Positions 13,433-57,411 of a stretch of 64,000 nt of DNA are shown here, piece after piece. The DNA lies in the NCBI GenBank assembly GCA_038871515.1, contig JAVZHX010000002.1, positions 141,815 through 205,814 of the forward strand. Reading direction: 5' to 3'. Source of the stretch: Candidatus Micrarchaeia archaeon. Its GTDB lineage: Archaea > Micrarchaeota > Micrarchaeia > Burarchaeales > Fermentimicrarchaeaceae. Both the position numbers and the translations under genes were made by a program. Within the stretch, counting starts at the first letter, position 1. Each line of letters begins with the position of its first letter. The notes under the pieces are model-generated. The model did not search any database. It worked only from the letters and a program-made list of their open reading frames with translations, and had not been told where the DNA came from.

Positions 13433-13459
13433 ACTATAAATACGGGGGGTTTATATAAA

Positions 13460-26638: not shown

Positions 26639-26695
26639 GGAGGCACCATAGTGTATATAATCAGATAATATGAATAAACAAACATAAATACCTTT

Positions 26696-40643: not shown

Positions 40644-43064
40644 TTATCTCCCGAGCATCACCCCAAAGTTTCCAGGGTGCACGGGCGTTATTCTCCCATT
40701 GCTTATCTCGGATTTTACTATAACCGCAAGGGAACTGTATGACAGCTCAAGCTTTTTAAGAACTTCCTCCATCTCTCTTCTATTTTCAAATACAATGAAA
40801 TTCTTGCCTAAGTCAATAAGCGCAAGTGCTCTCTTAAATGCGCTTTCATCCGTGTATATATGAATGTATATCCCTTCTCCTTTCACAGTTGCGAGCATAT
40901 CGCAGTCCTTCCTGCTGTTCAGATCAGTGAATGGAATTGCATTGTTCACAAAGAAGCTCCTTAGTAACCTGAAAAGCGCAAGGTATTTCATGCTTCTCCC
41001 GCTCTTTTCCTCCCATAGTTTTAAACCATATAGGTTAACTGCTTTCACAACATCCCCGCTTTCAATCAGCTCATTCAGAATTTTTTCTAAGTTGTAGTCA
41101 GTTATCATTATTGGAACTCCTTTATGAGTTATCTTTCTCCTCATCTCATTCTTCAGCTCCTGTGCGCTCAGAGGCATAAAACTCCATTTGTATTCTCTGT
41201 TGACAGAATCAAACAAGCTGAGCAGGGAGAATTTGGAAAGCGGAATCACAACTTTCTCCATAGGTGGAAAATCGGGCACATCAATTGTGTATACTGGTTT
41301 TTCAGGTCTTCTGAGCGCAACTGCCGCCCCTCCCACCACAAGAGTTAAAACTACAATTGCCACGTTAATTGGGTTGTCAAACCAGCCGGGTGGTTTTGCT
41401 CTTTTCACATTCACCGAAATTAACTCACCACCAACATTGAACTTGAATGTGTATTCCCCAAATCCCAAGTATATATCTGGGCGCGAGTAGTTGAAGTTCC
41501 CTTCTGAGTCTGTTGTTGATGGAAGTGGCTCTCTGAATAAATCCTTTCCAGGTGTGTTGTTCACAGTTATCAAAATTAATCTGTTTTTTAACGGCTCGGC
41601 TATCTCTTCCCCAAAACGATTATCTGGGGGCAGAACTGCTCTGAAAGTTATGAACTGTGGCTCATCCCAAAACTGCAAGGTGGGGGTGATGAGAATTTGG
41701 GGCACAATGAGCAGGGATTGGGCGTATACGTAACCATCATCGTCCTCTGCCCTCAGTATATAAACTCCTCTCTCAAAATCAACCACAAAATTGCTTGAGA
41801 AGGAATACTCGCCCTGTATGAGCCTTATTCCTCTCTGTGCAAGTTGCTTGCCAACAAGCTGCATATCCTCATCATACACCGCAACGCTTATGTTTATGTC
41901 TTTTGGTTGCGAGAAGTTTGCGAGGAGTTTGAAGTCTATCGTGAAGTCCGCCTCTCCCCTTGCAACCTTTGATTTGTGGAGCATGTTGCCAGAGACAGTT
42001 TTTGTTATTCTTCGCTCAACGACGGAGTGGAAAGGAAGGTTGTTTGTTGTGTTTGTTGTCAGGTATATTCTAGCCCATCCTTCGGGGTAGCTGGAGGGAA
42101 GGAAGAAAATCATTGTTTTATTCGAGTTTGATTCATTGATTTTTGATGATGGAACCAGGAGAGTGGCGGTTGTGAGTGGAGATTGCCATTCAACCTCGTA
42201 TATTGCTCTCGCCACATCCTCGCCTGCCTGAGTTCCATTGTAGCTCCAACCAATGTCAATGCTGCGTGGGAATGCCAGCAGATAACCATTCTCATTTTTC
42301 ACAACGGACAAAGAACCGCTAACAATGGTTTCTGAGATGCTGAAAGCTGGTTTTTTCAGCCTGTATGGTGGTTTTGTTAACAAATCCGTTCTTGGCTTGT
42401 AGTTTATACCGTACTGGCGAAGCTGCGATGGCGAAACTGGCTGAACCGAACCATCTTTATTAAGCGATGAGGAGAGCTCACTTCCAATGAATATAACAAC
42501 AAACCCCTTTTTCATAAGTGCGCCCAAATCAGTTCCACTTTCAACTCCGACAAGCTGACTTGGTATTTTGCCTGTTGGAACAATGAGTATCGAGGGGCGG
42601 GTGAGAGCGTCAAGCTGGTATAGTTTAATCTGATTCAGAGTTGATTCAGGTTCTATTAAACCATACTGTTTCAAATTTTTCTCCAGTGAGTCTTTGAAAT
42701 CGCTCAATCCATCGCACTCAACACAACCGCGGAAATCACCTGAGGAATAGTCAAGCAGGTATATGTCTTTTGGCACCTGATCCGCAAGAAGCTCTGCTCT
42801 TATTTCTACATTTCGTATATCTTTTCCATTAAGCTGGGAGAGGATGTAAACAATGCTTTTCTGCTCTATTCTGGAACCACCGGGAGTTGCTTTTACAGCT
42901 CCGTAATCCAAAACGCCGGAATCAAAGATTATGAGTTCCATTTGGGGGGTGACATTGAGGGGAGGGGGGCGGTAAGGCGGAAGCATTAACAGAACGAAAT
43001 AGAGAGCAACCACCCCTATAATTAGAAGTATGAGCAACAGCAGTAGAATCTTTTTCTTGTTCAT
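40644..43064 (-). CDS. bitopic/tritopic membrane protein (806 aa) with large extracytoplasmic and C-terminal cytoplasmic domains
   Basis: N-terminal TM (ILLLLLILLIIGVVALYFVLLML), about 540-aa outside domain, second TM (VAIVVLTLVVGGAAVAL), about 210-aa C-terminal domain. Confidence 0.55.
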   Translation of the reverse strand: MNKKKILLLLLILLIIGVVALYFVLLMLPPYRPPPLNVTPQMELIIFDSGVLDYGAVKATPGGSRIEQKSIVYILSQLNGKDIRNVEIRAELLADQVPKDIYLLDYSSGDFRGCVECDGLSDFKDSLEKNLKQYGLIEPESTLNQIKLYQLDALTRPSILIVPTGKIPSQLVGVESGTDLGALMKKGFVVIFIGSELSSSLNKDGSVQPVSPSQLRQYGINYKPRTDLLTKPPYRLKKPAFSISETIVSGSLSVVKNENGYLLAFPRSIDIGWSYNGTQAGEDVARAIYEVEWQSPLTTATLLVPSSKINESNSNKTMIFFLPSSYPEGWARIYLTTNTTNNLPFHSVVERRITKTVSGNMLHKSKVARGEADFTIDFKLLANFSQPKDINISVAVYDEDMQLVGKQLAQRGIRLIQGEYSFSSNFVVDFERGVYILRAEDDDGYVYAQSLLIVPQILITPTLQFWDEPQFITFRAVLPPDNRFGEEIAEPLKNRLILITVNNTPGKDLFREPLPSTTDSEGNFNYSRPDIYLGFGEYTFKFNVGGELISVNVKRAKPPGWFDNPINVAIVVLTLVVGGAAVALRRPEKPVYTIDVPDFPPMEKVVIPLSKFSLLSLFDSVNREYKWSFMPLSAQELKNEMRRKITHKGVPIMITDYNLEKILNELIESGDVVKAVNLYGLKLWEEKSGRSMKYLALFRLLRSFFVNNAIPFTDLNSRKDCDMLATVKGEGIYIHIYTDESAFKRALALIDLGKNFIVFENRREMEEVLKKLELSYSSLAVIVKSEISNGRITPVHPGNFGVMLGR

Positions 43065-43255
43065 TTAGCACCCTCTACTTTTAATCCAAATTTCTGCAGC
43101 AAGGATATCACTTTCTTCCTGAACTCACTTTCCTCTTCCTTGTATTTTTTCACAATTCTGAAACGCTTTATGTTCTGAAACCTCTTTCTGGTGCGCAGCA
43201 GATACGTCTCCTTTTTAACTTGAGACTCCAGTATGCTTGGGGTTTCCTCCATCAC
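43061..43255 (-). CDS. small basic protein (64 aa)
   Basis: Short ORF with stop/start overlaps to both neighbours in the array. Confidence 0.3.
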   Translation of the reverse strand: MMEETPSILESQVKKETYLLRTRKRFQNIKRFRIVKKYKEEESEFRKKVISLLQKFGLKVEGAK

Positions 43256-43256
43256 T

Positions 43257-44060
43257 TCACCCTATAGCCTCAAGATACCCCTGCATAACCATTGAGTTGA
43301 GCAGGTGCTCCACTCTTGATTCTAATACGTTATATGTTTTGGCAAACTCGCTTATGTTTATCTCGTTATGATGGAGCTCAAGCCACTCCTGTATTTTCAC
43401 CTTCAGCACATCATCAGAGGGAGATTCAACCTGCTTCAACCTGAGAGTGAGCTCATCGTTCTTTGCTTTTAATTCAATTGCCTCGTTTGTCATCTTTGTG
43501 ATTGCTGCGTTGAGAGCTTCCACCTTCTTCTGCAAGGAGAGGAATTCGTTATTGAGTATGTCGTATTTTGAGAATATTTCATCATACGTTGATGCAGCAA
43601 ATTCAGTTATCTCTGTTAGCGCATTGCGCAGTATTTGGTAGAACTGCTTGTGATTCGTTTCATATTCATCTTCTATAAGAGTCATAACATTTAGGAAGTG
43701 CTTCAGCACATCTATCTTCCTTTTTCTTATGCTTATGCCAGGAACAACTGAGTAAACAACCTCAATCTCATTCGGGCGCAGGTAGATTAGTGAAAAGAGG
43801 TAGGGGTTCTTTTTTATATCCCTGCTCTCAACATTCAGCGCAGCAACGTAGTCTGATTCAACAGTTAGCATAAGGGAGCTTATTGATGAGAGGGATTCGG
43901 CAAGCTTTCTTAAATCGCCTTTTCTACTTGCAGGTAATTTGAAGCCGTAGATTTGAGGCGCGGGAGTTTCATCCTTAACCTCCTTCTTCTGCTCCTTTTT
44001 TTCAACTGGTTTTTCAGGTTTCTTTTCCATGTTTCTCAACCTTTGGGTAATATGATACAA
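43257..44060 (-). CDS. hypothetical protein with Lys/Glu-rich N-terminus and coiled coil
   Basis: 267-aa ORF (possible start at internal MEKKPEKP about 44030). Co-directional in array. Confidence 0.45.
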   Translation of the reverse strand: MYHITQRLRNMEKKPEKPVEKKEQKKEVKDETPAPQIYGFKLPASRKGDLRKLAESLSSISSLMLTVESDYVAALNVESRDIKKNPYLFSLIYLRPNEIEVVYSVVPGISIRKRKIDVLKHFLNVMTLIEDEYETNHKQFYQILRNALTEITEFAASTYDEIFSKYDILNNEFLSLQKKVEALNAAITKMTNEAIELKAKNDELTLRLKQVESPSDDVLKVKIQEWLELHHNEINISEFAKTYNVLESRVEHLLNSMVMQGYLEAIG

Positions 44061-44367
44061 GAGCGAGTAGCATGAATACCACTCCCATCACAATAGCGAG
44101 GAGTAATGATTGAATTGAGAAGGAAATGAGGAGGAGTAGCACTGCCATAAGAACTGCAAGCACTCCCCACGTCATAGCAGTTCTCTCAAACCTCCTTCTC
44201 TTCTCCTCAGCTTTTGGCAGACACTCCTTACAGACAACTAGAGTGTTTCCTGTGGAAGCGTGAAGTTTTTCCTTAATTTTTCTTATCGTATCTATAACTG
44301 GGTCATCCTCAACCCTCAATCCTTTCTTCTCCTTCTGGCATACAATGCAGACTGTTTTTCTTTTCAT
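44014..44367 (-). CDS. zinc-ribbon (CxxC...CxxC) protein with two C-terminal TM helices
   Basis: CIVCQKEKKG...CKEC followed by hydrophobic VLAVLMAVLLLLISFSIQSLLLAIVMGVVFMLLALV. Confidence 0.4.
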   Translation of the reverse strand: MKRKTVCIVCQKEKKGLRVEDDPVIDTIRKIKEKLHASTGNTLVVCKECLPKAEEKRRRFERTAMTWGVLAVLMAVLLLLISFSIQSLLLAIVMGVVFMLLALVSYYPKVEKHGKET

Positions 44368-44369
44368 AT

Positions 44370-44669
44370 CTATCCCTTCAGAACAACCTCCTGAATCTTC
44401 TTATCATCCAACCCCACTTTCTTCGCATCTGCTTTTGAGAAAATTGTTATGAGGGTTGTCTTCTCCACCCCAATATCCTCAAGAAAGTTTGAAATCTGAG
44501 TTCTGCTTGCCCCAAACCTCTCAAGCGTGATAACAAATGTGACAACATCCATTCGCTTATTTCTCTTGTCAAACATGCTCATAACTTCCTCAAGGTGGGC
44601 ATCGCTTAAACCAAATAGCTTCAGCCGCTTTCTCAGCTCGCTTTTATCAAACGTGTATGCCTTCGCCAT
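44370..44669 (-). CDS. small protein paralogous to the C-terminal domain of the adjacent ATPase
   Basis: YTFDKSELRKRLKLFGLSDAHLEEVMSMFDKRNKRMDVVTFVITLERFGASRTQISNFLEDIGVEKTTLITIFSKAD aligns colinearly with the last about 85 aa of the upstream ATPase (YSFEKNELKNKLTEFGMDDIKASELINIFSKGNKHMDILEFVKFLDKNDLARSNITSFLKVIGMEDAMIIDIFNRID). Confidence 0.5.
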   Translation of the reverse strand: MAKAYTFDKSELRKRLKLFGLSDAHLEEVMSMFDKRNKRMDVVTFVITLERFGASRTQISNFLEDIGVEKTTLITIFSKADAKKVGLDDKKIQEVVLKG

Positions 44670-47600
44670 CTACCCACCGGAATCTATTCTGTTGAATATA
44701 TCAATTATCATCGCATCCTCCATACCAATCACTTTAAGAAAAGAGGTTATATTTGATCTGGCCAAATCGTTTTTATCAAGAAACTTCACAAACTCAAGTA
44801 TATCCATATGTTTATTTCCTTTGCTGAAAATGTTTATCAATTCAGAAGCTTTTATGTCATCCATTCCAAACTCAGTTAACTTATTCTTCAGCTCATTCTT
44901 CTCAAATGAGTAATTCTTTGGAATTGTTTCATCCGCAAGCTGCGCCTGAGTTAGGATTGATTCAACGTCAAGGAAGTATTCCTCAAGAGGCTCCTCTCCA
45001 TGAACTCTCTCAAGCAGAAAAGTTTCAGGGAACTTTGTGCTTGTCTGGAATGCCATGTTAACCGCGCACTGCCCAACTCCAAACTTGCTTATCTCCTCCC
45101 TCATGTAATCACTGAAGTTCAACGAACCCTGTATGTAATCTAAGAATTTCTGGAATTTCACTCTGAGGATGAAGTTTGTTCCAACGTTTGAGAAGATTGC
45201 TTCGTGTATGTCTGTTGGGTTCTGCGAGGCGACTATGAGACCGAAGTTGTATTTTCTACCCTCTCTCACAATCATGATTGCATCAGACCTTTCATCCTTC
45301 GCAATCTTCCACGCCTCATCAAGAACAACAAGCACTCTCAAACCCTTTGTTGCAGCCCATCCGGCAGCCCTCATTTTTTCTTTTAGGAATTGGAGGATGA
45401 ACAAGCCGGCAAGCCCTCTCATTACCTCGTCAGGCAAACCGCTCATATCAACGTCAACCAGCCCAACTTCAGTAAGCTCCTCAAGCTTCACAGTGCTCTG
45501 CTGCGCGAAGTAATCCTCACCTGGCCTGCAGAAGTTTCTTAATCTGTAGATTGCATTCTCAAGCTCCGCAGGAAACTCATATGTTCCTGATTTAAGCTTA
45601 TCTTCAAGTATTTTCACAACATCTTTTAAAGTTGGTGGGGTGAGTGGTTTACCATCTGCTCCTTTCTGCTCAACTTCATTCAATTTGAAACCAGCTTCCT
45701 TATACGTTTCCTCAAGCGCTTCCTCGGTAAGCCTCTTCTGCTCCGGGTATTGCCCAATATCTGTAAGTATCTCCAACGTTCGTATAATTTGCTTAACCCT
45801 GTCAAGTGGTTTCATTCCTCCCAAATCCATTAAATTGATGAAATCCCCTTTTCCCAGTGCAATTATCCTTCCTCCTGCCTGCTTAACCCATGCCCTGTAT
45901 TCGCCTGCCCAGTCAATTATTATCGCGTTGCTCCCCCAAACGAAAGCAGCGCGTGAGAGGAAAGTTTTGACGAAGTAGGAGTTATGCACAAATACTCCGC
46001 CAAAGCCTGCAAGGAAAACTTCCTCATCAACCTCCAAATCATAAACGTAAGGTGAGTTGCTGTTTATTTTCTCTATGTTGCTTATTCTATCCCAAACTAT
46101 ATCCGAGTTGGAAAGTAGTTTCAGAAATTCAACATCATCCCAAATTGTTGGCTCAGATTCATCTAATGAAAGTTGATGGGATAACTGCGGTGCGTAACCT
46201 GCAAAATTGCTTTCAACCTCATTGAGCATACCCGCGAGGTATTCTCTTGAAGGAGTTCTGAGCCCAGCAGCTATTGAATAAGTCATCTGAGTTCGTCTTA
46301 ACACTCCGTTTTTGACAAGTCTATTCACTACTGAGCCTATCTCTGGGATGAGGTCAACATTGCTGTGTGCTTTTGTTTTTGCAAGCAGTTTCGCAAGCTT
46401 TTCGTTTTTTGTTTTAAATGCAAAACCTATCTCCGCAAATTTCTCCAAGTTTTTCTTTCCAGAAATGGTAATTCTGTAGTAATAAGAGCCTGAATGGGAT
46501 GAGTTGGTGGCACGTTTCCAATGAGAGTGAACACGGGCATTCACTCCAAATTTTAGGAGTAGGTAGAGTAGATCATTGGCGAGTTCCCTGGATTTTGTGG
46601 TTGCGCAGACAGCGTGATGCTCCACGCTTCCATCTCCTTCGAAATAACCTCTTAGATACTCGGATATAATTTTTCTTGAGCAGGAGAATATGAAGGAGGG
46701 AACTGCTCTCTCCCCAGATTTTTTGTGCAGCAGAAGAGATTTGATGAGCTGTATGAATGGCTCTGAAGCAATTCTTACTCCTTTTCTAACTCTAAAGGAA
46801 CTGCTTCCAACAGAACTAGCACACCTCTCTACTTCTGCAAGAAATTCCTTGTTGCAGTTGCTCACATGGATGAAGTCCTTTGCTGTGTTTCCCTCAGCAG
46901 TTATGAAGCCAAGCAACCTTGCCAGTTCTGGCGTTATTGGGAGTATTGCTGGCAAGTTTATTCTTCCGTTGCGTGCCCGTATTCTAAGTTTTTTCATCTC
47001 CTCCTTCTCCAGCGGGGAGGTTCTGAGCAGCTTTCTGAAGTAGCGAAGCGGAACTGCTCTCCCATGCTTGTAGAAGCGTATGTATTTATCATACTGCTCG
47101 TCTATTGGTAGGTTGGATTCTATTTTCTCCCAACTAAATCTCACAAAGTTCAACCCCGTTACATACAGCTTGCTTTCACCAAGCAAATCCAGGAGGTTTA
47201 GCTCATCAAGGTTTGAATTGGAGTTTATTGAACGAGGTGTTGGGACGAAATCGCCTGGCTGAACTTCACTGCTTTTCACGACTCTGATGTATCCATCCCT
47301 GAAAACAACTATATTGTGATCGCCAGTTGTCTTAACCTCCCTCCCACTGCTTGTTGTGAATTTATACATCTGCTCGGGAGCTTCCTTCCTGGCAGCAGTG
47401 ACAACCCTGCTCCATTTTGCTTTTAGTGTGCTGTCAAAAGTATAAACTTCAACATTTGGGTTTCTCACGCAGGTGCAACCATCAATTTCCTCCGCCCCCT
47501 CTTGCTCAATCAATGAGTCCACAAGCTCCCCTATTCTGACAAGCTTTTCATTTCCATCAACTCTCACCAGAACTTTTTCATCTGGTGATATCGACTTGCC

Positions 47601-47813
47601 CGCGCCGGTTATCCCAACTATGCAGATATGTGGGTTTGTTAAATACTGATAGGACCAGTTAAAAGGAACGTGAAATATTTTTGTTTTTCCAATGTAGATT
47701 GAGTTGGATGGGTCAAGCGCGATGAACTCTGCTGGCGGTTCAGGAGGCCTTACAAACAACGGCCTCTTTGCAAGCTCCTTGCTCATTATGGATTGAACGC
47801 GTATTTTTCCCAT
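44670..47813 (-). CDS. VirB4/TraC/CedB-like P-loop ATPase interrupted by an intein
   Basis: Extein: Walker A CIVGITGAGK|S split by the intein. After splicing SYFVKTFLSRAAFVWGSNAIIIDWAGEYRAWVKQAGGRII (cf. iDpkGEY...gG motif of VirB4/TraG ATPases). Walker B LRVLVVLDEAWKI (DEAW is the VirB4-type Walker B). Confidence 0.75.
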   Translation of the reverse strand: MGKIRVQSIMSKELAKRPLFVRPPEPPAEFIALDPSNSIYIGKTKIFHVPFNWSYQYLTNPHICIVGITGAGKSISPDEKVLVRVDGNEKLVRIGELVDSLIEQEGAEEIDGCTCVRNPNVEVYTFDSTLKAKWSRVVTAARKEAPEQMYKFTTSSGREVKTTGDHNIVVFRDGYIRVVKSSEVQPGDFVPTPRSINSNSNLDELNLLDLLGESKLYVTGLNFVRFSWEKIESNLPIDEQYDKYIRFYKHGRAVPLRYFRKLLRTSPLEKEEMKKLRIRARNGRINLPAILPITPELARLLGFITAEGNTAKDFIHVSNCNKEFLAEVERCASSVGSSSFRVRKGVRIASEPFIQLIKSLLLHKKSGERAVPSFIFSCSRKIISEYLRGYFEGDGSVEHHAVCATTKSRELANDLLYLLLKFGVNARVHSHWKRATNSSHSGSYYYRITISGKKNLEKFAEIGFAFKTKNEKLAKLLAKTKAHSNVDLIPEIGSVVNRLVKNGVLRRTQMTYSIAAGLRTPSREYLAGMLNEVESNFAGYAPQLSHQLSLDESEPTIWDDVEFLKLLSNSDIVWDRISNIEKINSNSPYVYDLEVDEEVFLAGFGGVFVHNSYFVKTFLSRAAFVWGSNAIIIDWAGEYRAWVKQAGGRIIALGKGDFINLMDLGGMKPLDRVKQIIRTLEILTDIGQYPEQKRLTEEALEETYKEAGFKLNEVEQKGADGKPLTPPTLKDVVKILEDKLKSGTYEFPAELENAIYRLRNFCRPGEDYFAQQSTVKLEELTEVGLVDVDMSGLPDEVMRGLAGLFILQFLKEKMRAAGWAATKGLRVLVVLDEAWKIAKDERSDAIMIVREGRKYNFGLIVASQNPTDIHEAIFSNVGTNFILRVKFQKFLDYIQGSLNFSDYMREEISKFGVGQCAVNMAFQTSTKFPETFLLERVHGEEPLEEYFLDVESILTQAQLADETIPKNYSFEKNELKNKLTEFGMDDIKASELINIFSKGNKHMDILEFVKFLDKNDLARSNITSFLKVIGMEDAMIIDIFNRIDSGG
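45981..47594 (-). other. intein (about 538 aa) with LAGLIDADG homing-endonuclease domain inserted in the ATPase P-loop
   Basis: Block A S-ISPDEKVLVRVDGNEKLVRIGELVD right after GAGK. Block B VKTTGDHNIVV (TxxH). Two LAGLIDADG-type motifs LLGFITAEGNT and YLRGYFEGDGSV. Blocks F/G VYDLEVDEEVFLAGFGGVFVHN followed by +1 Ser that completes the Walker A (GAGK-S). Confidence 0.7.
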
Positions 47814-47822
47814 AAATATAAA

Positions 47823-49630: not shown

Positions 49631-50481
49631 GCAGAAGCAGCTCTCAGCTGGGGTGAGAGAGCTCTTTCGGTTGCAACATCAGATGCGCTTTCAAAATCGC
49701 TTTTGCATGCGCCAAACTCATCAAGATTGAACCCACCAATGCTGTTTCCAAGTTCATTTGCTTTATTTCTAACTTCAGATGGGTTTTCTGACATCATGGC
49801 AACAAACGTGAACATAATTGGATAGACGATTGACAACCCTATTCCAATTGCAATGAGCAAACCACCTGCACCTCTTGTCCATGGGAATATTCTCAATAAT
49901 ACTCCTGCGGGTATGAAAACTGTGAAGCCGGTGTTGTAGAAAAGGTGTATGAGAGCTCTCTGAAAAGCTGTGAGGATGGCTGCCATAGTCACAACATACG
50001 CTTGGAAGTGGAAGTGCTCGCTTACTGGTGATAGAATTAGCTCGAAGGGAGAGAAGTCTAACCCAGCTGCATTGAAGTAAAATGTGAATGTTGTGAGAAA
50101 CTCTATGATGAAGTTTATTCTGTAAACGTTGATATATATTGAATAAAGCGAGCTCATAACCCCGTCTAAGTAAACATATGCTTTTTTGTACGGGTTCATC
50201 CCACCGATCATTGTCTGAAATCCTTCGTTCAGCATGACATCCATCATAAAGATTAAACCACCAACAATCACTGCGCTTGCCAGCGCTTGATAAAATTCTG
50301 ATTTTGCCCATTTTCTCAATCCATCCAAATTCAGGGCAATGCCAAGCATATAAGCTAATGCGACAACAAGGAAAGCGGTTACAACTGCAGTTAATGCAAC
50401 TGGCTGCCAAACATTCCAAACTCCTTCAACTGCAACTGGAGTTGCACCCCAGGGTTCCGTCCACCAAATTATCTGCATCAT
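49477..50481 (-). CDS. polytopic membrane protein, family A paralog (334 aa)
   Basis: N-terminal LAYMLG...WAKSEFYQALASA motif. Core LLRIFPWTRGAGGLLIAIGIGLSIVYP. C-terminal GADITEIGQGIVRLL. Confidence 0.55.
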   Translation of the reverse strand: MMQIIWWTEPWGATPVAVEGVWNVWQPVALTAVVTAFLVVALAYMLGIALNLDGLRKWAKSEFYQALASAVIVGGLIFMMDVMLNEGFQTMIGGMNPYKKAYVYLDGVMSSLYSIYINVYRINFIIEFLTTFTFYFNAAGLDFSPFELILSPVSEHFHFQAYVVTMAAILTAFQRALIHLFYNTGFTVFIPAGVLLRIFPWTRGAGGLLIAIGIGLSIVYPIMFTFVAMMSENPSEVRNKANELGNSIGGFNLDEFGACKSDFESASDVATERALSPQLRAASAWILGWLSSVWLKIFYYPMLVLIVTFTFIRTISPLLGADITEIGQGIVRLL

Positions 50482-50489
50482 TTTTTCAC

Positions 50490-51521
50490 CTATATCAATC
50501 TTGTGAGGTTGCTCACATCTACCTCCTCACCCAACGCATACGAAAGTCCTTTCACAAAAGATATTAAGATCATGAACATAACAAGTGGCATAAAGATTGC
50601 ACCAACAATTGTTTTTCCTATGAAGCCAACGAAGAACTCGGAAAGGGGATTACCTGTGAACCAGCTTGGGTCGGTTGGACTGAGACCTGATTCCTTGAAT
50701 GAGTCTGACATACCTTCATAGCTCATCTGCACATCTCCGAGCACTGCGCCGTAGAAGAGAACTGCAAGAAGAGGGTAAAAGAAAAAGAAGCCAATTGCTA
50801 ATGCTATCAAACCTCCTCCAAACCCTCTTGTTGCACCAAAAGATCTTAGAAGAACACCTATTGGGAAGAGGATGACGAATAAGCTTTCCATCATTTTCAG
50901 CAGAACCATCTGGGTTAGCACCATTATTGCTGATGTCATGAGAACAATCATTGCCATGGTGAGGCTGCTTGATATGTCGCTGAAAACCGCCAGCGGGCTG
51001 ATCATCACGCCGACTCCTCCAGGTGCTTTTCCAATCGTCATTGTTGCAACGGACGACATAACTGCATTCAACCCAGCTACTGTCACGTAGCCAGTCATTA
51101 TTGTTGAGTAGAAGTCACTCAAATAACCGAATGCAACGTTTATCATGTTGCAGTTATCCCCTGTACAGCCCGTGTCTATCCCCAAAGTGTTCAAATCAAG
51201 CGAGCAGAGGAAGGAAACAAACCCAATTACAAAAATAGTTATTGCCATAGCGAGTATTGCCTCCTCCATCTGCTCCTTTGCCCACAGCGTAACTTTTCGG
51301 TGAACAAGCACGTGCCCCAACGTATAAACAAACGCTGCAACTAGGAAAACAGTTGAGGCAGCAAGGATGGATAAACTCTGCCAATTCCCCCAGTAGGTTT
51401 CGAACTCGGAGCTCACTGCTCCTGAACTGCATGCTGGCTTTACTGTTAATGTCCCTCCAGTAGCGGTACAGCCAAACCACATCAGCGAGAGCAGTAACAA
51501 ACCAATTATGTATTTTTTCAT
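50490..51521 (-). CDS. polytopic membrane protein, family A paralog (343 aa) with signal peptide
   Basis: WAKEQMEEA, LLRSFGATRGFGGGLIALAIGFFFFYP, C-terminal EEVDVSNLTRLI. Confidence 0.55.
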   Translation of the reverse strand: MKKYIIGLLLLSLMWFGCTATGGTLTVKPACSSGAVSSEFETYWGNWQSLSILAASTVFLVAAFVYTLGHVLVHRKVTLWAKEQMEEAILAMAITIFVIGFVSFLCSLDLNTLGIDTGCTGDNCNMINVAFGYLSDFYSTIMTGYVTVAGLNAVMSSVATMTIGKAPGGVGVMISPLAVFSDISSSLTMAMIVLMTSAIMVLTQMVLLKMMESLFVILFPIGVLLRSFGATRGFGGGLIALAIGFFFFYPLLAVLFYGAVLGDVQMSYEGMSDSFKESGLSPTDPSWFTGNPLSEFFVGFIGKTIVGAIFMPLVMFMILISFVKGLSYALGEEVDVSNLTRLI

Positions 51522-52450
51522 ATCAACCCACTCAGTCCACCTAAATCTATTTCGGCACCGAATATTTTTGCAAGCTCATTTATCAACACCAATGTGACTA
51601 TGAGGTTGAACATTGGCATGAATATAACAAATATGAATAAATAAAGAATTGCTGGATAGGCAACAAACTTTATAAGAGAGAGGAACATATTCCCACCAAA
51701 GTCAGGTGTGTTTGTTGTGCAGCTCATAGGATCATCACGACAGCTGCTTCCCAACCCAAGCGCATTGGCGAAGTTACGAGCACCTCCGACAAGTGCCAAT
51801 GGTTTTATTGTTTCGTCGTATATTGCCTTGTCAAACACCCAGAGGAAGGGATAGAAAATGTAGAAACCAAGGAAAACTGCTATGATTGCGCCTCCTGCAG
51901 GTCTGCTGAATGGAAATGCTCTGAGTGCTATTCCTATTGGAAGGAGGATTTGGAACTGTGTTTTTATGAATGTGAGAAAGGAACCCTGGCCGAGCAGAAG
52001 CCCAATCCCACCGAGCACTGCTTCCATTCCAAGCGACAGCATTGAGGTGACTGGAGCCAAACCAACAAATGGGTTTATGTTGAAACCTGTTTGAGTGGGC
52101 ATTGCTTTGAAGACAAGACTCTGTAGCATCCCAAAAAATGCATCCATCTCAACAATTGCAATGAAGAAACTCATCATCGAAGTGGTGAGCATGCTTATGT
52201 AATTTGATACAATTCCAAATGGATCCGCTCCATATAGACTTACCATAGTAGCGTCAATTGTTGATATAAAGGAGAGAAGCAGAACTGCAAGCAAACCACT
52301 GGCTATTGCTTGGTAAAGCTCATCCTTTGCCCAAGCCTGAAGCTTTGGCAGATGGAAGCCCATCCCAACCATATAAGCAAGCGCAACAAAACCAAACATC
52401 AGTGAGATAACCGCAAAGGTTATTCCATACCATTCAGCCCAGCTTACCAT
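51518..52450 (-). CDS. polytopic membrane protein, family A paralog (310 aa)
   Basis: WAKDELYQAIASG, ALRAFPFSRPAGGAIIAVFLGFYIFYP, C-terminal GAEIDLGGLSGLI. Confidence 0.55.
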   Translation of the reverse strand: MVSWAEWYGITFAVISLMFGFVALAYMVGMGFHLPKLQAWAKDELYQAIASGLLAVLLLSFISTIDATMVSLYGADPFGIVSNYISMLTTSMMSFFIAIVEMDAFFGMLQSLVFKAMPTQTGFNINPFVGLAPVTSMLSLGMEAVLGGIGLLLGQGSFLTFIKTQFQILLPIGIALRAFPFSRPAGGAIIAVFLGFYIFYPFLWVFDKAIYDETIKPLALVGGARNFANALGLGSSCRDDPMSCTTNTPDFGGNMFLSLIKFVAYPAILYLFIFVIFMPMFNLIVTLVLINELAKIFGAEIDLGGLSGLI

Positions 52451-52458
52451 TTTTTCAC

Positions 52459-53634
52459 CTACAATATTCTTGTAAGACCGGCAATTTCAACATCTCCTCC
52501 AAGCTGCGGGGAGAGAACTTTGATGAACGAAATTGTGACAAGAATTATAAGCAGTGGCAGGAATGTGCCTGGCACCATGAGGTAACCTACTGTTGGGAGA
52601 ACGCCATTGTAAGGAGTCATCATCCCCGCGTATACGTCTGAGCCGTATCCGCCACACAAATGTTTGCTCTCTCCACTTTCAACGATTGTTGTGCAAGAGG
52701 AACCAGGGCAGTCTGCATTACTAACGCACCCATTTTTGAAAAGGAATGATGGATCCCAGTAGTTTGCAACTGCTTGAGGAAGCCCTGGGATTACGTAAAC
52801 TACTAAACCTGCTACTCCAGTGCAGAAGGGTCTGGTTCCATCTCCTTCAGGAAGAAAGTTGCCAGTGCAAGCCCACGTGTTTGGGTCGTTACCTGTGTAA
52901 TAGAAAGTGTGCGCATTGAAAGTGAAGTAGCTTTCAAGCATCACGTAAAGTAATGGGTAGATTGTGTAAAGAGCAAGCGCTATTGCTATAAGTAAACCGC
53001 CAACTCTCCTTGAGAAAAAGAAAGTTCTCAAGATGATACCCATCGCAAGCAAGCTTGGGAAGAGGGCTTGCTTTATGAAAGTTAACATGTACCACTGTGC
53101 TATGATGCTTGAGAGCATTGGAAGCAGAACTGAGAAAGTGTATTCAAGCGAGTCAAGCACCATACTTCCCCCTTTCCAAAGATACCATGAGAAACCGAAT
53201 GCGGTTCTGCATTGCCCTATGATGCACAAACCACCTTCTGGGCCAACAGTGAAATCATAGAATTTTCCCATATTTGTTATCATACCCACTCTTATACTCA
53301 AATTGAATATGTGCTCAACTTGCTTTGTTACATTTAGTTTCAGTTTGTTGAGTATTCCAATTGCAACATCAACATGGTCTTGCCCAGGAGTGCATTTTCC
53401 AGTAACAGTACAGGAGAAGTTGGCGATTGCAGTTACTATTATAATGGCTGCTCCAACAATAAATGCGCTTGCAAGTGCTTGGTAAAGCTCATCCTTTGCC
53501 CAAACTTCCAACCTGCGTATACCAAAAACGTGGGAGAGCGCATAGGCGAGAGCAGCAAAAAGAATGGAAAGCACTGCTGCAGCTACTGCAACTGACTGCC
53601 AACTGCTCCATAAAGTTGCAAATGCACTACTCAT
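52459..53634 (-). CDS. polytopic membrane protein, family A paralog (391 aa) with Cys-rich extracytoplasmic insert
   Basis: WAKDELYQALASA, ILRTFFFSRRVGGLLIAIALALYTIYP, insert NGCVSNADCPGSSCTTIVESGESKHLCGG, C-terminal GGDVEIAGLTRIL. Confidence 0.55.
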   Translation of the reverse strand: MSSAFATLWSSWQSVAVAAAVLSILFAALAYALSHVFGIRRLEVWAKDELYQALASAFIVGAAIIIVTAIANFSCTVTGKCTPGQDHVDVAIGILNKLKLNVTKQVEHIFNLSIRVGMITNMGKFYDFTVGPEGGLCIIGQCRTAFGFSWYLWKGGSMVLDSLEYTFSVLLPMLSSIIAQWYMLTFIKQALFPSLLAMGIILRTFFFSRRVGGLLIAIALALYTIYPLLYVMLESYFTFNAHTFYYTGNDPNTWACTGNFLPEGDGTRPFCTGVAGLVVYVIPGLPQAVANYWDPSFLFKNGCVSNADCPGSSCTTIVESGESKHLCGGYGSDVYAGMMTPYNGVLPTVGYLMVPGTFLPLLIILVTISFIKVLSPQLGGDVEIAGLTRIL

Positions 53635-55526
53635 TGAAATACCTCTTCAAAATTCTGGCTTAAAATCCTTGCTGCATTCTTTACGAACGTGAGAGTTATA
53701 ACTAAATTTAGAGTTGGGAGGAATACTGCTTGTGGGATGAGAAAAGCTGCCTCCTTCATAAGGTGGTACAATGCTATCAGTGCAAGCGGTATAAATGGTG
53801 AAACTACGCCCGTGAGGAAGGATGGGACAAACGCTTCAACAAGAGGTAGTGAAATTTGGGGTATCACGGTGTCAACAATCATCTTATTCATAACAAAACA
53901 GAGCGGATACACAATATACAAACCAAGCGCTAGAGCGATAAGCATTGCACCTGCTTTTCTTAGGAATGGAAATATTCTGAACAGAATCCCAAGCGGGAGC
54001 ATTATTCTGAAAGCAAATGCTTGTATAATTGATAAACCTATATCTTGAACCATAAGGCTTGCTGAAATGCCCGCAAAGAAAGAGTAGATGTAGTCAAAAC
54101 AAACTGCAACTGCTCTCAAACCTGCGTTTGGCATGAAACCAGTTCCAAGTCCTCCTGGCCCAACCATCATCTTATAACCCGCAACCATCTGGCAGATGAT
54201 GCTGTACTGGAAAGCAGTTGTTGCGAGGTTGAGTGTTTTATCCCATACCAAACCATTGAGGTAGGTATGGGCTATATTGAATGGGTCATCTCCTGCCAGA
54301 GTTATGAAAACATTGCAAATAACGCTGAGCACAAGTATTAACAGTATCATAATCGCAACAGAGATTATTATTTGGTAAAATTCGTCCTTCACCCAAACTT
54401 CCCACTCTTTCTTCACAAGTATTTTTGACACCATATACACAACTGCAAGCAAAAGCAGAATTGTTCCCAACCCCATAAACGCAAGGTAGATCCACCCCCC
54501 GCTCCACCACTCATCGCTGATGCAGCAGGGGGGGTAAGGTGGTGTTGGAGGGCATGCGATGCTTGTTGAAGGAGGGGCTGCCGGTGCAACAACCGTATAT
54601 GTAACAGAGACGCTTCTGACATTCCCCTGGCTGTCTGTTGCTGTCACTACCATTGTGTGGGTACCGACAGAGGTGGAGTAACCTGTATGAGAGACGGTTG
54701 GGTTCGGATCGCAGTTATCCGTTGCTGAGTAGGATGGGAGAGGCACCATACCTGCCATATATGTTGCACCATCTGTAGGGGAGAGTATAGTTATTGTTGG
54801 AGCCTGAGAGTCTTGGGATTGAATTTCAAGTTTATACGTCACTCCTGTTGGGTTCTGCGTGAGAGTTGGGTCGTCTGGTTCATCCAAATCATAATTTCTT
54901 ACCAGGATGTCCAGTTCATTCTGTCCGTCATGTATGAAATTTTTGACATCAAATGTGTAGATTGTTGTCCAGGGTTGGTCTCCGGGTCCCCAGGTGGCAA
55001 CTCCGGTTATTTCATCAACAGTCGCGACTAATGCACCGTTTATTCTTATCTGAAATGCATCATCTCCAGTTATTTTCAAAGTTGCAGATGTTACGGAGCA
55101 GACATCAAAACATTTCTTGAACTCCCTCCACGTATCTCTGTGGAAGTCAAGGGAGTTGTTGTATTCATATGATATCCAATGTATTGTTGGGTCGTTGTCG
55201 ATATGAGGCCTTGTTGCTTCGGTATCACAAGCGGCAACAACCGCATCCTTCCACGGAGTCCAAGTTGATGGGTCGGACACATTTTGATTGTCAAGCTCCT
55301 CAGCATGTCTCACTATATCTTTAGTATCACTTACCATCGCAGCTGAAGGAAGGCGCATATCCGCAACTCTACATGTTCCAACTCCACCACCACCGCCTCC
55401 TCCTCCACCACCGCCATTTGCAGCTATCCAGGAGAAAACAGGTGTTTGCATTAAAAGTAATACAAGAAGGCATTTCCAATAACTTACTCTGAATGCTCCC
55501 CCCAAGTATTTTTTTCTGAGTTTCAT
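53631..55526 (-). CDS. family A paralog (631 aa) fused to N-terminal secreted Ig-like module via Gly11 and Pro-rich linkers
   Basis: Signal peptide, GGGGGGGGGGG, Ig/HYR-like segment (DNCDPNPTVSHTGYSTSVGTHTMVVTATDSQGNV), Pro-rich APAAPPSTSIACPPTPPYPPCC, then WVKDEFYQIIISVA and ILFRIFPFLRKAGAMLIALALGLYIVYP core. Confidence 0.55.
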   Translation of the reverse strand: MKLRKKYLGGAFRVSYWKCLLVLLLMQTPVFSWIAANGGGGGGGGGGGVGTCRVADMRLPSAAMVSDTKDIVRHAEELDNQNVSDPSTWTPWKDAVVAACDTEATRPHIDNDPTIHWISYEYNNSLDFHRDTWREFKKCFDVCSVTSATLKITGDDAFQIRINGALVATVDEITGVATWGPGDQPWTTIYTFDVKNFIHDGQNELDILVRNYDLDEPDDPTLTQNPTGVTYKLEIQSQDSQAPTITILSPTDGATYMAGMVPLPSYSATDNCDPNPTVSHTGYSTSVGTHTMVVTATDSQGNVRSVSVTYTVVAPAAPPSTSIACPPTPPYPPCCISDEWWSGGWIYLAFMGLGTILLLLAVVYMVSKILVKKEWEVWVKDEFYQIIISVAIMILLILVLSVICNVFITLAGDDPFNIAHTYLNGLVWDKTLNLATTAFQYSIICQMVAGYKMMVGPGGLGTGFMPNAGLRAVAVCFDYIYSFFAGISASLMVQDIGLSIIQAFAFRIMLPLGILFRIFPFLRKAGAMLIALALGLYIVYPLCFVMNKMIVDTVIPQISLPLVEAFVPSFLTGVVSPFIPLALIALYHLMKEAAFLIPQAVFLPTLNLVITLTFVKNAARILSQNFEEVFQ

Positions 55527-56503
55527 ACCAATCTAGCCAGCCCAAACAAATCCGGATCCCCTCCAAGCGCACCTGCAAGGGAACGGATTGATGATAGAGT
55601 GATTATAACAACTATCACGAATAATGCTGAGATTATCACAAAGTTTTGCATGAGCGCAGTTATTAGATTGATTATAGAGGTAATATCCCAAGAGACAGCT
55701 CCAAAAGTTGCGTTTCCTGCGAAATCAAATACGTTGCCCGGGTCTCCCGGTGCAGTAACTGCTCTGTAGCCTAAGTAAACATTCCAGCTATAGATTATTG
55801 CAAGTGGGTATATAATGTAAGCACCAATTGCAATTGCAATTATTGTCCCACCAGCAACTCTTGTTGTTGGGAATGTTCTCATCAAAACTCCAAGAGGAAG
55901 GAAATACTTCAGCATTGTGTATCTGAAGAAATCAAGAAGCACCTGCTCTGCTAGAAGCACAGCAAGCATTGCGGATATAACATTGAAAACAGTGTTTATT
56001 CCAGTTGTCACTGGTCCAAGCCCAGCCCAAGGTGAAACAAACGAGCCGAAGCGAATGGTAACGATTGTTGGGAGAGGAGGCGGTAGAATTGGTATCGGGA
56101 TGAAAAAACTGAACATAAGAGTTGAAATGGCGCTTATTAGGAAGTTTGCAAGGAAAATTGAGAGCCATATGCTCATTGTCTCAAGCAGCATCATATCGAG
56201 AGCATTATGCGCCACCTCAAATGGGTTGCCTCCCGCCAGGTTTATTGAAATTCCAAAAAGAATGTTAACAAGTAGGATAAGAACACCGACAATCACTCCA
56301 CTTATGAATATCTCATACATCTCCGTCTTCGCCCACTCCTCAAGCTCCCTGTAGTGAAACCCAATTGCAACAGCATAAGCTAAACCAATTATTCCAAAAG
56401 AAACAGCCAATGCAGTTAAAGCAGTTGTCTCCCACCCACCTAGGAATATGCCACCGCTTAACTGTGCTTGAGTTATCTGAAGAATTGCCAAAGGGAGAGG
56501 CAT
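55523..56503 (-). CDS. polytopic membrane protein, family A paralog (326 aa)
   Basis: WAKTEMYEIFISG, VLMRTFPTTRVAGGTIIAIAIGAYIIYP, C-terminal GGDPDLFGLARLV. Confidence 0.55.
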   Translation of the reverse strand: MPLPLAILQITQAQLSGGIFLGGWETTALTALAVSFGIIGLAYAVAIGFHYRELEEWAKTEMYEIFISGVIVGVLILLVNILFGISINLAGGNPFEVAHNALDMMLLETMSIWLSIFLANFLISAISTLMFSFFIPIPILPPPLPTIVTIRFGSFVSPWAGLGPVTTGINTVFNVISAMLAVLLAEQVLLDFFRYTMLKYFLPLGVLMRTFPTTRVAGGTIIAIAIGAYIIYPLAIIYSWNVYLGYRAVTAPGDPGNVFDFAGNATFGAVSWDITSIINLITALMQNFVIISALFVIVVIITLSSIRSLAGALGGDPDLFGLARLV

Positions 56504-56567
56504 ATTATCTATTTTGTGATCTGGTTGTTTTTAAAACTAACTGAAAGTTGAAAAAAGAAAAAGGAGT

Positions 56568-56987
56568 TCAGCAGGGGGTATAAGCCATTGTTCCCCCAGA
56601 CATCCGTGTGAATATATCTACTAGAATTGGCGCTAGAACTGCAATGAATATACCTAAAATCCCTCCGACAAGGAGAGACATTGCCCAGCCCTGTGCCTTT
56701 GCTCTCATCTCAGCACCAAATACCTGGCCTGCTGCGTATGCCAACCCTGCGAACAGGAACATTATCAGCGCAAGCGTTGGCAGCACTGTATAAACCAGCA
56801 CTTGGAAGTCACATAGTGCTTTTCTTATGGTTGAAGCCATACCTGTGGTGCTTGTTGCCGAAACTAATGGTAGCAATAGAAGGAGGAGCACAATTGTTTT
56901 GTTTTTCATTCCAACCACCAATAATTTATGGAAAATAAAAAATAAAAAGGGAGATGGTCGTTTAGCAGGCTGCTTCTGCCATTTCAC
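56568..56987 (-). CDS. VirB2/TrbC-like pilin candidate (paralog 1)
   Basis: Probable start at MKNKTIVLLLLLLPLVSA (about 56909). Long signal peptide, helix 1 (VLVYTVLPTLALIMFLFAGLAYAAG), short charged loop (QVFGAEMRAKAQGW), helix 2 (AMSLLVGGILGIFIAVLAPILV). Two-helix hairpin topology of conjugative pilins. Confidence 0.5.
   Translation of the reverse strand: MKWQKQPAKRPSPFLFFIFHKLLVVGMKNKTIVLLLLLLPLVSATSTTGMASTIRKALCDFQVLVYTVLPTLALIMFLFAGLAYAAGQVFGAEMRAKAQGWAMSLLVGGILGIFIAVLAPILVDIFTRMSGGTMAYTPC
56661..56760. repeat. approximately 100-bp near-identical repeat, copy 1 (core of pilin paralog 1)
   Basis: ccctccgacaaggagagacattgcccagccctgtgcctttgc...gcctgctgcgtatgccaaccctgcgaacaggaac recurs at about 57054-57153 with only a few mismatches. 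Confidence 0.6.
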
Positions 56988-57312
56988 CCATTGACATGCT
57001 TATGAAGATGCCAACGAGCACTGGCGCAAGCACTGCAAGCACAATGCCGATTATCCCTCCGACAAGGAGAGACATTGCCCAGCCCTGTGCCTTTGCCTTT
57101 GTCTCAGCACCAAATGCCTGGCCTGCTGCGTATGCCAACCCTGCGAACAGGAACAGAATCAGGGATAGGGTTGGAAGCACTCCAGTCACTAGCACCTTGA
57201 AGTAGCATAGACCGGATGCTATTGCTGCTGCCATTGAACCAACTCTGGTTGCTGAAACCACTCCCATGGCTAACAAAGCCAGCAAAGTCGTGTACTTTGC
57301 TTTCATTTTCAA
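56962..57312 (-). CDS. VirB2/TrbC-like pilin candidate (paralog 2)
   Basis: MKMKAKYTTLLALLAMGVVSA signal peptide, FKVLVTGVLPTLSLILFLFAGLAYAAG, QAFGAETKAKAQGW loop, AMSLLVGGIIGIVLAVLAPVLV. First gene of the 31-kb minus-strand array. Confidence 0.5.
   Translation of the reverse strand: MKMKAKYTTLLALLAMGVVSATRVGSMAAAIASGLCYFKVLVTGVLPTLSLILFLFAGLAYAAGQAFGAETKAKAQGWAMSLLVGGIIGIVLAVLAPVLVGIFISMSMGEMAEAAC
57054..57153. repeat. approximately 100-bp near-identical repeat, copy 2 (core of pilin paralog 2)
   Basis: Same sequence as 56661-56760 (about 95% identity by eye). Flanks diverge. Confidence 0.6.
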
Positions 57313-57334
57313 TCACCTCAACGCCCGAGAGGGC

Positions 57335-57411
57335 TTAGAATATTATTTCATATGTTATATTTAAACCTTTCTATAAGTGTACTAGAACAGAAGGCGAATA
57401 CTTGCTAGAAA
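57335..57411. promoter_or_regulatory. divergent promoter region upstream of the pilin/secretion array and of the plus-strand small membrane gene
   Basis: AT-rich spacer with TATA-like tttaaatat on the minus strand about 35-45 nt upstream of the pilin start and GGAGG Shine-Dalgarno before the ATG at 57412. Confidence 0.25.

Follow-up and report, generated by a model that had tools for sequence, protein, structure and literature searches.

Among the closest described counterparts of the locus analyzed here are the Ced and Ted systems of Crenarchaeota, which import DNA and comprise CedA, CedA1, CedA2, CedB and CedD or TedA, TedB, TedC and TedD (PMC9905601, PMC11868833, PMC11823120). In the case of CedB and CedD, the N-terminal domain of VirB4 is redistributed among separate proteins (PMC11868833). 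The locus is an array of genes running from position 57312 down to 26144 on the minus strand of a 64,000-nt stretch (the window) of the genome of a Candidatus Micrarchaeia archaeon (assembly GCA_038871515.1, contig JAVZHX010000002.1, positions 141,815 to 205,814). An annotation made from the sequence alone, called the original prediction below, had proposed that the array encodes a pilus apparatus related to conjugation and type IV secretion systems (T4SSs), like Ced and Ted. Our reading, which we favor without considering it secure, is that the array belongs to a chromosomally fixed machine, widespread in Micrarchaeota, that is derived from T4SSs or shares ancestry with them. Because scores against the CedB and CedD models fell below cut-off, membership of Ced itself was rejected, and the six paralogous membrane proteins, motor and pilin are read as a new T4SS-derived variant. 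No description of the cluster was found in open-access papers and bioRxiv preprints.

DPANN archaea live as obligate episymbionts, by molecular means of host contact and feeding that are, to our knowledge, largely unknown. A T4SS-derived machine conserved across the phylum, with an ATPase of at least 60% identity, is a testable candidate for the DPANN-host interface, and its core is also found in Micrarchaeum (L053), a genus with cultivated members.

The probable split motor, the pilins and the polytopic paralogs

Open reading frame (ORF) listing and translation revealed an unbroken minus-strand gene run of 31 kb from 57312 to 26144. It had been described as 24 genes with gaps of at most 65 nt or 4-nt overlaps; the array and the overlaps stood, but the count dropped to 20 co-directional genes once starts were corrected, with spacings of -47 to +64 nt and 4-nt overlaps at five junctions. 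Two ORF calls (48659-49630 and 56568-56987) are over-extended, with likely starts at 49468 and 56909. The order of products is two small proteins, six polytopic proteins (a to f), two hairpin proteins (BIT1 and BIT2), an intein-bearing ATPase, a 99-aa protein, a Zn-ribbon/transmembrane (TM) protein, a coiled-coil protein, a 64-aa protein, an 806-aa two-TM protein, proteins of 2700 and 1787 aa, and two small coiled-coil proteins.

The ATPase (44670-47813, minus strand) has a 509-aa extein in which the previously noted motifs GxTGxGKS, iDxxGEY and DEAW were all seen, as Walker A GITGAGKS, IIDWAGEY and Walker B LDEAWK. Contrary to the earlier statement that no ORF of the block carries a recognizable label, which was otherwise partly true, the extein passes the Pfam gathering scores of AAA_10 (30.6 bits, cut-off 27.5) and DUF87 (29.8, cut-off 23.2), and it belongs to the superfamily of VirB4, CedB, CedD and HerA. 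In NCBIfam, the top matches for this protein and for a second ATPase at the array end were CedD and CedB, roughly tenfold below the equivalog cut-offs (NF053655 CedD, 70.6 vs 600; NF041017 CedB, 65 vs 700). VirB4-type models scored 27.5 vs 643 (TIGR00929 VirB4_CagE), 42.5 vs 567 (TraC) and 56 vs 325 (CD1110), and the HerA equivalogs 56.5 vs 800 and 46 vs 970. Alignments of the VirB4-type models (CD1110, TraC and PDB 4ag5) extend from the P-loop to extein residues ~331-374 of 509, and LDEAWK aligns with FDEFWK of TrwK. The best PDB sequence matches are HerA proteins, with HerA matches confined to the Walker B half. The P-loop is preceded by only ~55 aa, and therefore neither a VirB4-type nor a HerA-type N-terminal domain is present on the ATPase polypeptide. 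The sequence supports assigning this protein to the VirB4/HerA superfamily, as a C-terminal domain whose Walker B is DEAW; its place in the VirB4 family itself is tentative. PADLOC returned only generic HerA/DndH/mad8 P-loop matches, and a defense-system reading was dropped.

The P-loop is split after GITGAGK by a 538-aa intein with a LAGLIDADG homing endonuclease (45981-47594, minus strand; aa 74-611 of the ATPase; Pfam Intein_splicing and LAGLIDADG_3). Its junction was verified, because intein-less orthologs of 98% and 92% identity read GITGAGKSYFVKTFL, exactly the predicted splice product. Nearly all ATPase orthologs are 510-540 aa long, which suggests that they are intein-free, and an eRF1 intein occurs in another Micrarchaeota locus, L005.

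In every genome, the gene directly upstream of the ATPase encodes a hairpin protein, the family to which BIT2 (47823-48662, minus strand) and its 42%-identical paralog BIT1 (48659-49468, minus strand) belong. The two had been predicted to be bitopic paralogs resembling VirB8 and VirB10 in topology. The paralogy was borne out, but the N-terminus is a two-helix hairpin rather than a single span, and there is no P-loop. The AlphaFold2 model of BIT2 (predicted local distance difference test score, pLDDT, 83.5) consists of two N-terminal TM helices and an alpha/beta domain of ~200 aa, and its top Foldseek match in the PDB was 7o41_B, a 685-residue chain of the R388 inner membrane complex (probability 0.99, E=0.018, 198 columns). 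The 7o41 complex holds only VirB3 (104 aa), VirB4 (823 aa) and VirB8 tails; since a 685-residue chain fits neither of the others, 7o41_B is VirB4. As a P-loop is lacking and the C-terminal domain is accounted for by the separate ATPase, the match was taken to be to the N-terminal domain of VirB4. The hairpin together with VirB4 as best fold match ruled out the VirB8/VirB10 reading. The hairpin-protein profile found nothing in PDB sequences, in Pfam up to E 10, or against TrwK and TrwM by hhalign. On the basis of the model, we infer that these proteins combine a VirB3-like hairpin with a VirB4-N-like domain, the region of VirB4 that is aligned being itself deduced. That a VirB4-related motor is split over two genes, one for the hairpin protein and one for the P-loop ATPase, is well supported.

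The two small proteins at the head of the array, pilin 1 (56962-57312) and pilin 2 (56568-56909, with a likely ATG start at 56909 within the mechanical ORF to 56987; both minus strand), are 66% identical. Each has an ordinary signal peptide ending in ..A/..SA and two hydrophobic helices, with a conserved YAAGQxxGAExRARAxxW loop between them. Their earlier designation as tandem pilins of VirB2/TrbC topology was upheld by several comparisons. The window proteins are sub-threshold for Pfam T4SS_pilin (20.7 and 14.9 bits vs 26.6; for pilin 2, T4SS_pilin E=4.5e-4 and TrbC E=8.9e-4, also sub-threshold). T4SS_pilin (PF18895) is matched by 17 of 25 members of the family (best E=7.6e-7) and TrbC/VirB2 (PF04956) by eight of the 25 (best E=1.1e-5). 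The best match of the family profile among PDB sequences was TrwL/VirB2 (E=0.07), and when the profile was aligned by hhalign to six T4SS proteins of R388, TrwL alone rose above background (26.3, E=5.5e-4; the others 10-13). NCBIfam gave no matches for the pilins or the polytopic proteins. We accept the family, from these profile comparisons, as homologs of VirB2-type pilins. The mature pilin contains exactly two Cys in 24 of the 25 sequences, ~78-81 residues apart, the first close to the beginning of helix 1 and the second at, or within 5 residues of, the C-terminus; in pilin 1 the second is the last residue. In VirB2-type pilins the two termini are close to each other, and the chains of T-pilin and RP4 TrbC are joined head-to-tail into a ring. 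By analogy, a disulfide between the two Cys may mimic the head-to-tail closure of T-pilin and TrbC.

Following the pilins, all on the minus strand, are the polytopic proteins a (326 aa, 55523-56503), b (631 aa, 53631-55526), c (391 aa, 52459-53634), d (310 aa, 51518-52450), e (343 aa, 50490-51521) and f (334 aa, 49477-50481), which share 24-32% identity and invariant W/Y/W.K/G/R.F...R..G/YP positions. An exhaustive HMMER search of a 1.84-billion-protein library recovered 3085 cluster representatives of the family (2518 at E<=1e-10), including one Anstonellaceae protein. Tandem arrays recur in distant lineages: L087 has at least five genes, L088 six, L093 exactly six and L094 at least four, and the L088 array lies 5 kb from a hairpin-ATPase-coiled-coil operon, while that of L093 is a stand-alone block amid unrelated genes. 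Pairwise phmmer comparisons showed colinear one-to-one orthology, with a, b, c, e and f corresponding to positions 1, 2, 3, 5 and 6 of L093; a, b, c and f also have colinear orthologs in L088 (a, b and f at positions 1, 2 and 6), and c and f in L087 (f again at position 6). Position d is the most divergent. Such colinearity across lineages implies that the six-fold duplication is ancient and that the copies are non-redundant, and the simplest reading is that they would form a hetero-oligomer of fixed composition.

The original prediction had called these paralogs VirB6/CedA-like by architecture. Their paralogy, context and topology agree with that, as does a pilin-like N-terminus, but the direct fold match to VirB6 is weak. 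AlphaFold2 predicted paralog d to fold into very long, bundled helices (pLDDT 78.9), and for this model Foldseek found nothing significant; the highest-probability matches were TrwI/VirB6 chains (probability 0.57-0.63, TM-score 0.34-0.41). Neither six-, 30- and 124-member profiles of the family run against Pfam, NCBIfam and the PDB nor hhalign against R388 TrwI gave anything informative. The pilin profile, on the other hand, aligns by hhalign with helices 1 and 2 of the paralog profile, loop included (37.6, E=3.7e-5, probability 71%) vs 9.6-21.1 for two reversed and 30 column-shuffled controls, and the sole extra matches of the paralog hidden Markov model (HMM) among 7854 ORFs were pilins. Beltran et al. 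described a pilin-like N-terminus of the same kind when comparing CedA with CedA1 and VirB6 with VirB2 (PMC9905601). From the profile evidence, homology between the N-terminal hairpin of the paralogs and the pilin is well supported. The six proteins are likely analogs of VirB6 and CedA; membership of the VirB6 family is unproven. Orthologs of c in other genomes have inserts of ~950 aa in the last external loop, at the very site of a Cys-rich insert in the window protein. Paralog b has an N-terminal ectodomain of ~340 aa, with a run of ~13 Gly after the signal sequence (residues ~40-50) and Ig-like/beta-sandwich ectodomains at residues 145-315 (weak Big_13 and Bac_rhamnosid_N matches); its ortholog in Ca. 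Fermentimicrarchaeum limneticum is 882 aa, so the length of the ectodomain varies.

Conservation of the core across Micrarchaeota

The ATPase extein is 92% identical to a protein encoded on the 1.18-Mb chromosome of Ca. F. limneticum, and more than 100 proteins under the names Micrarchaeota, Micrarchaeia or Anstonellales match it at 60% identity or better. For the conservation scan, one genome per GTDB species was used; 370 loci encode a relative, and the best 80 were taken for ORF calling and phmmer classification, so that all synteny counts over ~80 species refer to the best 80 of 370 loci. Wherever flanks were present in these 80, the core order was invariant: hairpin protein, ATPase, (99-aa protein), Zn ribbon, coiled coil, ~850-aa protein. 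Eight Fermentimicrarchaeum-like genomes retain the entire array in synteny. In ~20 of the 80 loci, which represent several clades and include the Ca. Micrarchaeum genome L053, the hairpin-protein gene is directly preceded by one for a pilin. The suggestion of a lineage-specific variant therefore had to be abandoned, given that the six-paralog array and the ATPase core are both spread across the phylum. In the distant lineage L088, the hairpin-protein gene is preceded by a gene (4681-5019, minus strand) for a 112-aa multi-TM protein that the pilin HMM does not recognize and that could represent either a diverged pilin or another kind of small membrane partner.

The remaining core genes, all on the minus strand, encode the 99-aa soluble protein (44370-44669), a paralog of the C-terminal ~80 aa of the ATPase; the Zn-ribbon (CxxC...CxxC) and TM protein (44014-44367); the coiled-coil protein (43257-44060); and the 806-aa protein (40644-43064). 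The Zn-ribbon and coiled-coil proteins are universal core proteins. The latter has a conserved N-terminal domain and a C-terminal winged helix weakly like that of CdvB (2xvc, E=0.013), with a faint CdvB_HTH match. The 806-aa protein is the universal last core gene, the ~850-aa protein of other genomes, and is made up of an N-terminal TM segment, an ectodomain of ~540 aa, a second TM segment and a cytoplasmic C-terminal domain of ~220 aa, which is the most conserved region. Its profile detected no relatives in the PDB, and the C-terminal domain has no database match. The domain displays the pattern DIPDFPP...W..MPL...GKPILIGDYNLE...DCDxK...HIYE, in which the D...DxK element could, as a sequence pattern, be a nuclease-like motif. 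The 64-aa basic protein between these genes (43061-43255) is conserved only in the Fermentimicrarchaeum-like clade.

Downstream of the core are the two predicted giant proteins: one of 2700 aa (32485-40587), a candidate adhesin with a signal peptide and a C-terminal TM anchor that has no Pfam domains and is syntenic in close relatives, and a membrane/coiled-coil protein of 1787 aa (27100-32463). Two small coiled-coil proteins of 132 and 164 aa (26144-27094) end the array; all four genes are on the minus strand. A second ATPase of the VirB4/HerA superfamily had been announced on the opposite strand, and a stand-alone DUF87/HerA/DndH-type P-loop protein is indeed encoded there (24918-26147, plus strand), running toward the end of the array. 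Its synteny is limited to close relatives, one of them 81% identical, and it could fill a CedD/VirD4-like role. It is tied to the system by position alone, and its membership is uncertain.

Proposed mechanism, alternatives and genomic context

In the mechanism we propose, the six paralogs would form a hetero-oligomeric, VirB6/CedA-like membrane platform, with a hexameric ATPase docked underneath through the hairpin proteins. The motor would extract pilins from the membrane and polymerize them into a short pilus or conduit, while the giant surface proteins would act as adhesins. The apparatus would carry out contact-dependent transfer between symbiont and host, which is probably its role, with import of DNA or other macromolecules, by analogy with Ced and Ted, as the most plausible direction. 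Plasmid conjugation is unlikely, because no relaxase or coupling protein was found among the window ORFs and inheritance is vertical. A more daring version makes the module the nanomachine of the host interface, in Micrarchaeota and perhaps in further DPANN: a fixed ring of six different VirB6-like subunits would match a hexameric split-VirB4 motor, and a pseudo-cyclic, disulfide-closed pilin would serve as the intercellular tube importing host DNA, nucleotides or other macromolecules, the whole being an essential organelle and not an accessory for gene transfer; we regard it as unlikely in its entirety.

Three observations weigh against a T4SS-derived machine. The ATPase scores alike for the HerA, CedB/CedD and VirB4 models and stays far under all equivalog cut-offs; the link between the hairpin protein and VirB4 is a single Foldseek match (E=0.018) with no match at the level of sequence; and in most Micrarchaeota neither the pilin genes nor the six-paralog array are adjacent to the ATPase core. 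Coupling of the pilins and six paralogs to the core was deduced from lineages in which they are fused to it or nearby.

Among the alternatives, a system that only assembles a pilus or adhesion filament, with motor and platform polymerizing the pilin and displaying the giant adhesins and nothing being translocated, survives best, though we consider it fairly improbable. The pilins, the giant surface proteins and a neighboring glycosyltransferase would all suit such a filament, and no coupling protein, relaxase or DNA-processing gene was identified among the window ORFs. However, the core retains a Zn-ribbon protein, a winged-helix/coiled-coil protein and a strongly conserved cytoplasmic domain on the ~850-aa protein, which suggests handling of a cytoplasmic substrate, and in most loci the ATPase core has no adjacent pilin.

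The substrate might instead be the giant surface proteins themselves, or other effectors, the apparatus then being a protein-secreting T4SS-like or novel system dedicated to their export and anchoring. The giants follow the module here and in close relatives, large proteins also follow the paralog arrays of L087, L088 and L094, and giant SPEARE proteins of Nanohaloarchaea have been linked to VirB4-like ATPases (PMC10266531). Nevertheless, the signal peptides and TM anchors of the giants are ordinary, no homology could be detected between giants of different lineages, and in most species they are not beside the core; we find this explanation quite improbable.

To a HerA/FtsK-type DNA pump acting in segregation, division or repair, unrelated to secretion and with the pilin and polytopic genes adjacent only secondarily, we likewise assign a low probability. 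It would account for HerA proteins being the best PDB matches, for the CdvB-like winged helix of the coiled-coil partner, for an ATPase conserved at 60% identity or more, which fits a housekeeping role, and for FtsZ lying 6 kb away in L003. Yet the HerA matches cover the Walker B half only, and the ~55 residues before the P-loop have no counterpart of the HerA N-terminal region. The HerA motif is EAH, whereas the ATPase has DEAW. The pure HerA-NurA repair system that the original prediction had set against its own proposal was not seen, as there are no HerA N-terminal domains upstream of the ATPase and no NurA, Mre11 or Rad50 neighbors in the array. A pilin gene directly upstream in ~20 of 80 loci of different clades, and a hairpin partner whose fold matches VirB4, also speak against the pump.

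Finally, a conjugative or integrated mobile element (an integrative and conjugative element or plasmid remnant) is extremely improbable: an intein, a TnpB insertion sequence and a small rise in GC content (to 0.476 at 24-26 kb) do occur nearby, as the original prediction had pointed out in proposing an accessory or integrated element, and the nearest annotated PLSDB relatives of the ATPase are plasmid-borne VirB4-like ATPases of at most 29% identity, but GC is flat across the array (0.41-0.45), synteny and housekeeping flanks are kept across the phylum, the TnpB insertion is missing in an 81%-identical relative, a scan of 44 window ORFs with Pfam found no relaxase, coupling protein or integrase, and an IMG/VR viral-contig scan found no relatives. 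The module is chromosomal and vertically inherited. The only trace of such proteins was TrwB_AAD_bind in the second ATPase (18.6 bits vs a cut-off of 20.5). Rfam and tRNA scans of the window were empty; the window therefore contains no tRNA integration site.

The right flank of this chromosomal module consists of an aspartyl-tRNA synthetase, a radical-SAM/TRAM enzyme and a PMT_2 glycosyltransferase of the dolichyl-phosphate-mannose type (57806-59317, minus strand), and the left flank of archaeal mevalonate pathway genes. In several distant Micrarchaeota (L001, L005, L014, L016 and L082), a glycosyltransferase gene of this type again directly precedes the pilin or hairpin-ATPase module, and its product may be an accessory component that glycosylates the pilin or surface proteins. 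The position between it and the pilins is occupied, divergently from the pilin genes, by a gene for a 133-aa three-TM protein (57412-57813, plus strand), found at the same position in the close relatives L007, L008 and L011. Farther out (61401-63260, minus strand) lies a 619-aa protein with a signal peptide, a beta-rich N-terminal region, a long helical stretch rich in Ala and Ser and, at the C-terminus, a TM anchor; Pfam gave no match for it, and it may be an S-layer or surface protein. The mevalonate cluster (1624-2670 and 12353-17820) encodes a GHMP kinase, an FMN-dependent isopentenyl diphosphate isomerase, an isopentenyl-phosphate kinase, an AcnX (phosphomevalonate dehydratase-like) protein and a UbiD-like decarboxylase, so that synthesis of isoprenoid precursors seems within the reach of this DPANN genome.

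The sole mobile feature by the array is the TnpB element of ~21.7-24.9 kb, in which TnpB occupies 22975-24027. The element is of IS200/605 type (plus strand) and, together with a 310-aa ORF of unknown function (21729-22661), separates the second ATPase gene from an AAA_18 kinase-like gene. In L090, the 81%-identical relative, only ~1 kb without TnpB lies between the same two genes, and the insertion is therefore recent. The GC-rich segment downstream of TnpB (24.0-24.9 kb) could house its guide RNA.

Comparison with known systems

Like Ced and Ted, the Micrarchaeota system is an archaeal, chromosomal, relaxase-less minimal T4SS derivative. Shared components are a VirB2-like pilin (with a signal peptide, which is cleavable in TedC too), polytopic VirB6-like proteins, candidates in Micrarchaeota, that start with a pilin-like segment, and ATPases of the FtsK/HerA superfamily. 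Ced also has its VirB4 N-terminal domain spread over separate proteins. In contrast to the one or two polytopic proteins of Ced and Ted, however, the Micrarchaeota system has six fixed paralogs; its N-terminal domain is on a separate hairpin protein instead of being fused to an ATPase; and it adds three further conserved core proteins and a DPANN episymbiont as its host. In NCBIfam there were no CedA or CedA1 matches to go with the low CedB and CedD scores, so the original prediction's Ced kinship does not extend to membership, and the Ted-type neighbors ParA and Rad50 were not seen among the window ORFs.

With the bacterial VirB/Trw systems of R388 and pTi the array shares a VirB2-type pilin, a VirB3-like hairpin and VirB4-N-like fold, a DEAW P-loop domain and a polytopic VirB6-like candidate. 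It differs in that it is without VirB1, 5, 7, 8, 9, 10, 11, D4 or a relaxase, its VirB4 is split into two genes, its pilin has a conserved Cys pair, and a six-member set of different polytopic proteins takes the place of the VirB6 homopentamer of R388 (PMC9259494). An archaeal type IV pilus or archaellum was rejected, the pilins having ordinary signal peptides and two TM helices and the ATPase being of the FtsK/HerA superfamily, not GspE; the window proteins gave no Pfam matches to T2SSE or T2SSF. The rvh T4SS of Rickettsiales reportedly has tandem, multiplied VirB6 paralogs with large extensions, along with duplicated VirB2 and VirB4. Its likeness to the Micrarchaeota array is by analogy and in architecture only, as rvh is built of bona fide VirB family proteins in a diderm, with VirB7-11.

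The chromosomal, MPF_FATA-related T4SSs of Patescibacteria (Candidate Phyla Radiation) offer another parallel, being phylum-wide, mostly relaxase-less, equipped with VirB2-like pilins and carried by ultrasmall obligate episymbionts (PMC12102498). The Pfam T4SS_pilin family is common to both, and the monoderm CD1110 VirB4 family is among the nearest ATPases known from plasmids. The differences are that they belong to another domain of life, that the Micrarchaeota VirB4 is split and far below VirB4 cut-offs, and that the accessory genes are others. The Nanohaloarchaeal SPEAREs are likewise from DPANN and pair giant Ig-rich surface proteins with VirB4/TraG-like ATPases in a proposed host-interaction secretion system (PMC10266531), but their ATPase domain is part of the giant polypeptide itself, and no pilin or six-paralog array is described.

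The Micrarchaeota system thus differs from all described systems in a VirB4 split at a domain boundary, six fixed platform paralogs, a two-Cys pilin and three extra core proteins. The first three are informative about the evolution of T4SS platforms and pili from a common hairpin. The system would also extend the precedents of Ced/Ted and Patescibacteria, in which case minimal, relaxase-less T4SS derivatives would have been domesticated repeatedly in ultrasmall symbionts.

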